From Laetmonice hystrix (lineage: Eukaryota), in assembly GCA_965235115.1 (NCBI GenBank), contig OZ249436.1:38194001-38258000 (forward strand): DNA of 64,000 nt, read 5' to 3'. Positions 25,387-26,488 of the stretch are shown here, in pieces. Each line of letters starts with the position of its first letter. Within the stretch, counting starts at the first letter, position 1. A program made the translations under genes and the position numbers. The notes below the pieces were generated by a model, which worked only from the letters and a program-made list of their open reading frames with translations, did not search any database and was not told the DNA's origin.

Positions 25387-26488
25387 AACCAATCTTGTCA
25401 CTAATTCTAATGTAGACCTATGTGTTGTTATCGTCACAGAATAACAACCAATCTTGTCACTAATTCTAATGTAGACCTATGTGTTGTTATCGTCACAGAA
25501 TGACAACCAATCTTGTCACTAGTTCTAATGTAGACCTATGTGTTGTTATCGTCACAGAATGACAACCAATCTTGTCACTAGTTCTAATGTAGACCTATGT
25601 GTTGTTATCGTCACAGAATGACAACCAATCTTGTCACTAGTTCTAATGTAGACCTATGTGTTGTTATCGTCACAGAATGACAACCAATGTTGTCACTAAT
25701 TCTAATGTAGACCTATGTGTTGTTATCGTCACAGAATGACAACCAATGTTGTCACTAATTCTAATGTAGACCTATGTGTTGTTATCGTCACTGATTCTAA
25801 TGTAGACCTATGTGTTGTTATCGTCACAGAATGACAACCAATGTTGTCACTGATTCTAATGTAGACCTATGTGTTGTTATCGTCACAGAATGACAACCAA
25901 TGTTGTCACTGATTCTAATGTAGACCTATTGTGTTGTTATCGTCACAGAATGACAACCAATGTTGTCACTGATTCTAATGTAGACCTATGTGTTGTTATC
26001 GTCACAGAATGACAACCAATCTTGTCACTAATTCTAATGTAGACCTATGTGTTGTTATCGTCACAGAATGACAACCCATCTTGTCACTAATTCTAATGTA
26101 GACCTATGTGTTGTTGTCGTCACTGAATGACAACCCATCTTGTCACCAATTCTAATGTAGACCTATGTGTTGTTGTCGTCACAGAATGACAACCAACCTT
26201 GTCACTAATTCTAATGTAGACCTATGTGTTGTTGTCGTCACAGAATGACAACCAACCTTGTCACTAATTCTAATGTAGACCTATGTGTTGTTATCGTCAC
26301 AGAATGACAACCAATCTTGTCACTAATTCTAATGTAGACCTATGTGTTGTTATCGTCACAGAATGACAACCAATCTTGTCACTAATTCTAATGTAGACCT
26401 ATGTGTTGTTATCGTCACAGAATGACAACCAATCTTGTCACTAATTATAATGTAGACCTATGTGTTGTTATCGTCACAGAATGACAAC
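25387..26488 (+). repeat. 59-bp minisatellite (about 19 copies) made of the intron 3' end plus the first 9 nt of the next exon
   Basis: Unit AACCAATCTTGTCACTAATTCTAATGTAGACCTATGTGTTGTTATCGTCACAG|AATGAC; the last copy runs directly into coding sequence. Confidence 0.95.

Follow-up and report, generated by a model that had tools for sequence, protein, structure and literature searches.

The locus analysed here raises the question of why the end of an intron and the first nucleotides of a putative peptide-coding exon are repeated 19 times, and which of the resulting acceptors would be used in splicing. Within the window (the whole stretch of 64,000 nucleotides that was analysed) a 59-bp tandem array occupies positions 25,387 to 26,488 of the plus strand, where Tandem Repeats Finder gave two rows of 6.9 and 11.9 copies with 97–98% matches. 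We recognized 19 unit anchors, a full unit of about 59 bp being made of 50 nt of intron end and 9 nt of exon start. The earlier note had described about 19 identical 3' splice sites; the number and the position stand, but the units are near-identical, with 13 distinct sequences among them, the commonest of which occurs four times. To this commonest unit 17 units are 94.9–100% alike, the exceptions being units 7 and 8, and unit 8 bears the junction of the deletion in unit 7. The motif CACAG is kept in 17 of the 19 units, being removed from unit 7 by the deletion and changed to CACTG in unit 13, and the CAG acceptors in the array are thus 16 decoys (25,439 to 26,420) and the terminal AG.

25,744 to 25,779, plus strand: unit 7, 36 nt, with a 23-nt deletion between its two GTCAC words and without a CAG.
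26,478 to 26,479, plus strand: terminal AG, on its sequence the presumed authentic acceptor.

Each of the 16 decoy CAGs leads into seven codons of the type N(D/N)N(Q/P)(S/C/P)CH and then a stop, as had been predicted, and among the CAG sites only that of unit 19 (26,479) continues into the precursor frame. The wider claim that only the last AG gives the full precursor went too far: a TAG at 26,454 to 26,455 is also in frame and would give a precursor eight residues longer, and AGs at 26,500 and 26,509 inside exon 2 would give shorter in-frame forms. Variants are common to blocks of adjacent units (3–5, 8–11, 13–15 and 15–16). Two of about 12 independent changes in the array destroy a CAG with no sign of a pattern, which speaks against the regulatory reading proposed earlier. 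No match to a 22-nt pattern of the unit was obtained in metagenome contigs.

The array is, on these sequence features, a "mirage" minisatellite, a usually harmless kind of repeat known from lancelets, with human parallels. Four of six features of this class were found, as judged from sequence. The repeat is head-to-tail and its unit spans an intron–exon boundary (as placed by the predicted gene model); the authentic junction would lie in the terminal unit, adjoining the remainder of the exon; the splice dinucleotide is kept in many, not all, units (CACAG in 17 of 19); and the units appear to turn over in concert with their neighbours, judged by shared variant blocks rather than a tree. The other two features are allelic length variation and normal splicing. 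Among the literature matches listed, the term mirage occurred together with splicing in amphioxus papers only.

The gene model into which the array falls comprises the following elements.

22,810 to 22,816, plus strand: TATAAAA, a TATA-box-like motif and putative promoter, with an initiator-like TCAGT 34 nt further on, at 22,844.
22,844 to 22,895, plus strand: probable non-coding first exon, with a predicted donor of the type GAG or AAG followed by GTAAAG.
24,986 to 25,076, plus strand: predicted coding exon 1, with ATG at 25,011, 22 signal-peptide-like codons and a phase-0 donor CAG/GTACGT.
25,254 to 25,386, no strand assigned: piece of a MITE-like inverted-repeat element, with 86–93% matches to 7,588–7,814, adjoining the 5' end of the array.
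26,480 to 26,638, plus strand: predicted coding part of exon 2, with an acidic pro-region, RVKR (26,555 to 26,566), a 23-residue peptide ending in Gly-Arg, and a stop.
26,923 to 26,928, plus strand: candidate poly(A) signal ATTAAA; the next AATAAA is at 27,354.

The donor of the non-coding exon would lie after 22,895 or, alternatively, after 22,925 (GAG/GTAAAG and AAG/GTAAAG). The predicted precursor has 74 residues. Its signal-like stretch has a best 11-residue mean hydropathy of 3.12, the top of five scan hits, its pro-region contains 11 D/E in 32 residues, and its 23-residue peptide has 3 D/E, 1 K/R, no Cys, 4 Pro and 2 Trp. A signal peptide, an R-X-K-R site and a C-terminal Gly with a basic residue, all seen as sequence motifs, are what the general class of furin-processed, amidated secreted peptides carries, and we take RVKR and Gly-Arg to stand for furin processing and amidation. 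The host looks like a real prepropeptide gene with several close paralogues. High-copy repeat DNA starts at about 26,950. The dispersed inverted-repeat element appears to be MITE-like; such elements lie at 7,588–7,814 and 24,104–24,593, and part of the first is copied at 25,254–25,386.

The acceptor signals do not single out the last unit. CTAAT motifs are present, as stated earlier, with TTCTAAT in units 1–18, absent only from the terminal unit 19, and CACTAAT in 11 of the 19 units, the terminal one included. The tract that had been called T-rich is instead GU-rich and moderate, with 10 pyrimidines in 17 positions compared to 8–13 at seven other predicted acceptors in the window. As this count falls within the range of the window, the decoys look usable by sequence, and in their agreement with the local acceptor pattern they equal the terminal site. 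The terminal unit, being without TTCTAAT, is by consensus not the best-equipped acceptor. A preference for the first AG after a branch point had also been invoked. That rule concerns the scan that starts at a branch point already chosen, and it gives no ranking of tandem units. It was misapplied: a TAG lies 24 nt 5' of the CAG position in 19/19 units, and the first AG to follow the CTAAT motifs is thus not the CAG.

Two further ideas on the units were tried and rejected. The TGACAA/TTGTCA quasi-palindrome contained in the unit could mask the decoys by structure. With RNA folding in three window sizes, the probability that the AG is unpaired was 0.08–0.16 for most decoys (0.27 for unit 2 in the shortest setting), 0.41–0.71 for units 14 and 15, and 0.13–0.22 for the terminal site, and decoy and terminal AGs thus did not clearly differ in accessibility. 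A chain of micro-exons was discarded since, by eye, none of the six GTs per unit is donor-like, and since 59 cannot be divided by 3.

The last copy alone is followed by real exon sequence, and probably by the gene's 3' end, which makes exon or terminal-exon definition, the second alternative of the earlier note, the likely mechanism by which the last AG would be selected, and this fits both the sequence evidence and the published cases. The classic experiments with duplicated splice sites are reportedly those of Reed and Maniatis in 1986. Should exon 2 be the last one of the gene, junction-dependent decay would not remove transcripts spliced to a decoy; this, like the missing TTCTAAT of the terminal unit, counts against a neutral reading of the array.

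We consider the array a neutral by-product of slippage, with the last AG used, at a probability of about 0.68. We infer its origin, the AG used and its neutrality as follows. AAC is found at both breakpoints of the array unit. A 59-bp stretch over the border of the intron and exon 2 would have been duplicated once, probably by slippage on this 3-nt repeat, perhaps aided by the quasi-palindrome, and the array would then have grown to 19 units through slippage or unequal exchange. The AAC microhomology, the GTCAC deletion of unit 7 and the variant blocks together fit one microhomology-guided duplication followed by ordinary minisatellite turnover. The last copy is joined to the remaining exon by geometry, so that the gene stays intact; any tandem duplication of an acceptor leaves its last copy on the exon, and the position of the last site needs no selection. 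The spliceosome would mainly take the last AG, because it alone is followed by real exon sequence and by the gene's 3' end, the upstream copies carrying just 9 nt of exon each. The array would leave with the intron and have no function, and may be tolerated in a genome with many arrays of this kind and in a redundant young gene family.

A second array of the same kind was found in the window.

49,352 to 49,666, minus strand: second acceptor mirage, 24-bp unit, 13.1 copies, 100% matches (Tandem Repeats Finder), before the exon at 49,353 to 49,253 of a PH-domain gene.
60,163 to 60,026, 50,055 to 49,939, 49,353 to 49,253, and from 48,591, minus strand: predicted exons of the PH-domain gene.

The four exons join into an open frame of 540 codons, and the nearest upstream copy of the 24-bp acceptor array inserts a stop or begins with one. 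Pfam PH matched the first exon (E 4.7e-7) and the second (E 0.23), and the exon behind the array has no match of its own. As this gene is unrelated and lies 23 kb away, the feature is not specific to the peptide gene. Among the arrays longer than 300 bp, 2/6 end on a predicted splice site in the right sense compared to 0.07 expected (P 0.002), and 1/5 compared to 0.054 expected (P 0.052) when the focal array is left out; this test, within the window, uses 17 predicted sites of our own choice and a crude null. That arrays fall on splice sites somewhat more often than this null gives is a point against the neutral reading.

Other features of the window were recorded. Three long minisatellites are tied to no predicted splice site: 15,594–16,216 (71 bp), 18,362–20,187 (53 bp) and 34,226–35,683 (24 bp). 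Both strands of the 71-bp array hold long open frames and an RVKR lies directly upstream of it, which is probably due to chance. The RVKR at 15,543, additional to that of exon 2, was rejected as a candidate; 2/500 shuffles reached it, it was chosen post hoc, and chance probably accounts for it. A gene resembling sodium/bile-acid symporters (SLC10) lies at 37,430–42,722 on the plus strand, with a Ser-rich long last exon and a Pfam SBF match on one exon (E 6e-4) that is under the curated cut-off. Searches with neighbouring genes, made to place the animal group, returned no match. A collagen-like Gly-X-Y open frame at 969–1,373 on the plus strand comes from a 15/45-bp repeat and may be a mere translation of it. 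A dispersed element of about 310–350 bp has three copies that are 94–99% alike (30,680–30,982, 56,135–56,482 and 58,753–59,102).

The array and its surroundings were followed in three public DNA runs, from one sample, that contain the locus, by examining their contigs over 26,400–28,200. Exon and flank are covered alike by the contigs of the three runs, which thus behave as DNA; no RNA run turned up for the locus, which says nothing either way. The depth of the array contig relative to that of the single-copy exon contig was 7.2, 9.1 and 8.2 (3/3 runs, one sample), and 7.7–8.1 is expected from the assembly (mean 31-mer copies); this comparison covered the last 1.5 units of the array only, and the agreement is not independent, as the runs are possibly the source of the assembly. 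The array depth is compatible with two alleles of similar mean length, which contigs from one sample do not resolve singly.

The acceptor and the first part of exon 2 (26,461–26,570), but not the peptide part, recur in six further DNA contigs, two or three of which extend further into the pro-region. The start of exon 2 is present at 5.5–9.9 times single-copy depth in these six contigs, and the peptide part is near single-copy. We read this as several close paralogues with a common acceptor and pro-region and diverged mature peptides, which would form a secreted-peptide family. A conserved pro-region with a variable peptide is usual for such families. As the array depth matches one array, the paralogues are probably without it and the array would be young; the summed contig depths point only weakly to these array-free paralogues and to the youth of the array.

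The existence of close paralogues would also suit a reading in which the array is a form of damage. The upstream AGs would then often be used, or this copy would hardly be expressed, and the array would be a partial loss of function in a decaying paralogue for which the others cover. Signs of decay are present nearby, as the repeat element lies directly against the array and two degenerate pieces of peptide-gene sequence were found.

26,613 to 26,690, plus strand: degenerate second spacer/cleavage cassette, after the stop and out of frame, with RVKH.
17,827 to 17,966, plus strand: paralogue-like exon 2, with an acceptor, a similar start, RVKR, and a Pro-rich peptide whose last residue before the stop is Gly.

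The alignment score of the second cassette, 69, was reached by 0/500 shuffles (shuffle maximum 60). Between contigs of the three runs there are differences at one site within 26,613–26,690, at 26,532 and at 26,716, which are probably heterozygous sites, and another contig matches the 26,613–26,690 part with further differences. The paralogue-like exon was the best off-target match of the window scan, with 2/500 shuffles reaching its score; its cleavage site is not in the frame in which the exon starts (frameshifted), and no matching exon 1 was found for it. In the window no paralogue of exon 1 or of the promoter was found. The terminal unit is also without one branch-like motif, and pseudo-sites have been reported in use in the human 6-16 gene and in CBS intron 13 (PMC1557585, as far as its available text goes). 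Nevertheless, we hold damage to be an unlikely account, since the promoter-like motifs, both splice borders, the signal peptide, RVKR and the Gly-Arg end of the array-bearing gene all appear intact, the PH-domain gene keeps its 540-codon frame despite a similar array, and published acceptor cases are described, in the parts seen, as splicing mostly normally (PMC3087553, PMC3902484, PMC1334203).

The earlier note had further proposed that the repeat number tunes or silences peptide output. In such a case the number of units would determine what fraction of transcripts goes to dead-end products of 29 residues, and the peptide dose would be adjusted through selection. Any use of a decoy would lower output, since all 16 decoys stop after seven codons; by the local acceptor pattern the decoys are no worse than the terminal site; and in human genes a link between repeat length and splicing has been described (ABCA7; a genome-wide catalogue; both known from part of the text). 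However, the intron sequence itself dictates the stop after each decoy and selection is not needed for it, and the variants of the array resemble ordinary turnover. The same architecture precedes the exon of the unrelated PH-domain gene, and amphioxus mirages are reported not to disturb splicing in the portions of the papers at hand (PMC3087553, PMC3902484), so that the proposal gained no support and we regard tuning as very improbable. Its boldest version, an acceptor-side repeat rheostat in which array length would be a heritable, fast-mutating dose dial in a young and fast-diverging peptide family, is a long shot. In this version decoy transcripts, escaping junction-dependent decay, would give dead-end products, and the array-free paralogues would be built-in controls.

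A wrong gene model, with chance exons or a long-dead gene and the array an ordinary intergenic minisatellite, is less probable still. The searches with exon 2 fit such a reading: a protein word search (28–91 residues) returned no relative, 1.84 billion representatives gave 0 matches at E<=0.001, the best score in the Atlas, 0.83, was inside the shuffled range, and no Pfam family was found; the query of 52 residues is of low complexity and a weak probe. RVKR alone also arises by chance, three times in the six-frame listing. Against this, the borders are canonical and agree in phase, a strong signal peptide being connected by them with an acidic spacer, RVKR and Gly-Arg, and the paralogue-like contigs keep the acceptor and the pro-region, not the peptide part. 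Last, the array is, as far as can be told, not an assembly artefact, an explanation to which we give next to no chance, since although no contig spans the array and the assembly may have been made from these runs, the depth ratios agree with those expected and the variant blocks among the units are structured.

As a structure the array is one more example of a named class. It is also a natural test substrate, with 16 near-identical upstream acceptors set against a single terminal site that has no advantage in consensus or predicted folding, and it isolates the weight of downstream exon context in the choice of a 3' splice site. A rise of decoy use with copy number, if it occurred, would amount to a new and simple means of tuning a secreted peptide. 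A separate small lead is the host peptide family, for which the searches found no relative.

Among known systems, which are compared here from partial texts, the host gene recalls invertebrate prepropeptides with a signal peptide, an acidic pro-region and a Gly-Arg end, such as the sea-urchin centrocins (PMC4805251). The predicted precursor likewise has a signal of about 20 residues, a pro-region of about 30 residues, Trp in the peptide and a C-terminal Gly-Arg, beside which it has a relic second cassette. The likeness is one of layout only, as centrocins have two chains joined by a disulphide and a cationic peptide, whereas the peptide here has no Cys and is acidic (3 D/E, 1 K/R), and no sequence match was found. 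Expansion of minisatellites at exon borders is reported to be enriched in young human paralogue families (PMC2812944). Earthworm metallothionein has intronic minisatellites, and boundary-spanning ones are not described in the available parts of that paper (PMC12783039); a paper on intron birth (PMC3265369) adds, in its available parts, little here.

In human donor-side VNTRs, namely F7 intron 7 (37 bp, 5–9 copies), LMNB2, PDGF, 6-16 and CBS intron 13, a boundary-spanning minisatellite also gives many identical pseudo-sites and the authentic one is adjacent to the exon (PMC1557585). In the excerpts of that paper the authentic site alone is used in F7, LMNB2 and PDGF, and in 6-16 and CBS intron 13 the two nearest pseudo-sites are used as well, so that leakage is possible. 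Those are 5' sites with the authentic one transcribed first, whereas here they are 3' sites with the authentic one, as predicted, transcribed last, and the scanning model of PMC1557585 cannot simply apply.

The amphioxus mirage minisatellites include that of the globin BflGb6, which is of the acceptor type, and those of BflGb9, Adh3, troponin C and PGBD5 (PMC3087553, PMC3902484, both seen in part). In BflGb6 an intron end with an exon start is present in 6 and in 3 copies, and RT-PCR suggested regular splicing (PMC3087553); the Adh and troponin C (TnC) mirages are said, in the text available, to yield no aberrant mRNA (PMC3902484). For amphioxus both length polymorphism and the splicing outcome were shown, whereas our array is known from DNA sequence alone, and it has 19 copies with only 9 nt of exon per unit in a short peptide-precursor gene, probably before its last exon. 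As in amphioxus, the 3' end of the intron and the start of the next exon are repeated head to tail, the AG is kept in most, not all, units, neighbouring units are the most alike, and the unit size is within the reported 10–160 bp.

The closest human parallel in geometry is CBS 844ins68 (c.844_845ins68), a duplication across an acceptor in which splicing goes to the downstream site and yields mostly wild-type mRNA (PMC7490669, PMC1334203; both in part). Intronic G-run silencers are reportedly implicated. CBS has two copies, which differ by few bases, and our array has 19, but the geometry is almost the same, with 52 nt of intron and 16 nt of exon duplicated in CBS compared to 50 and 9 nt here.
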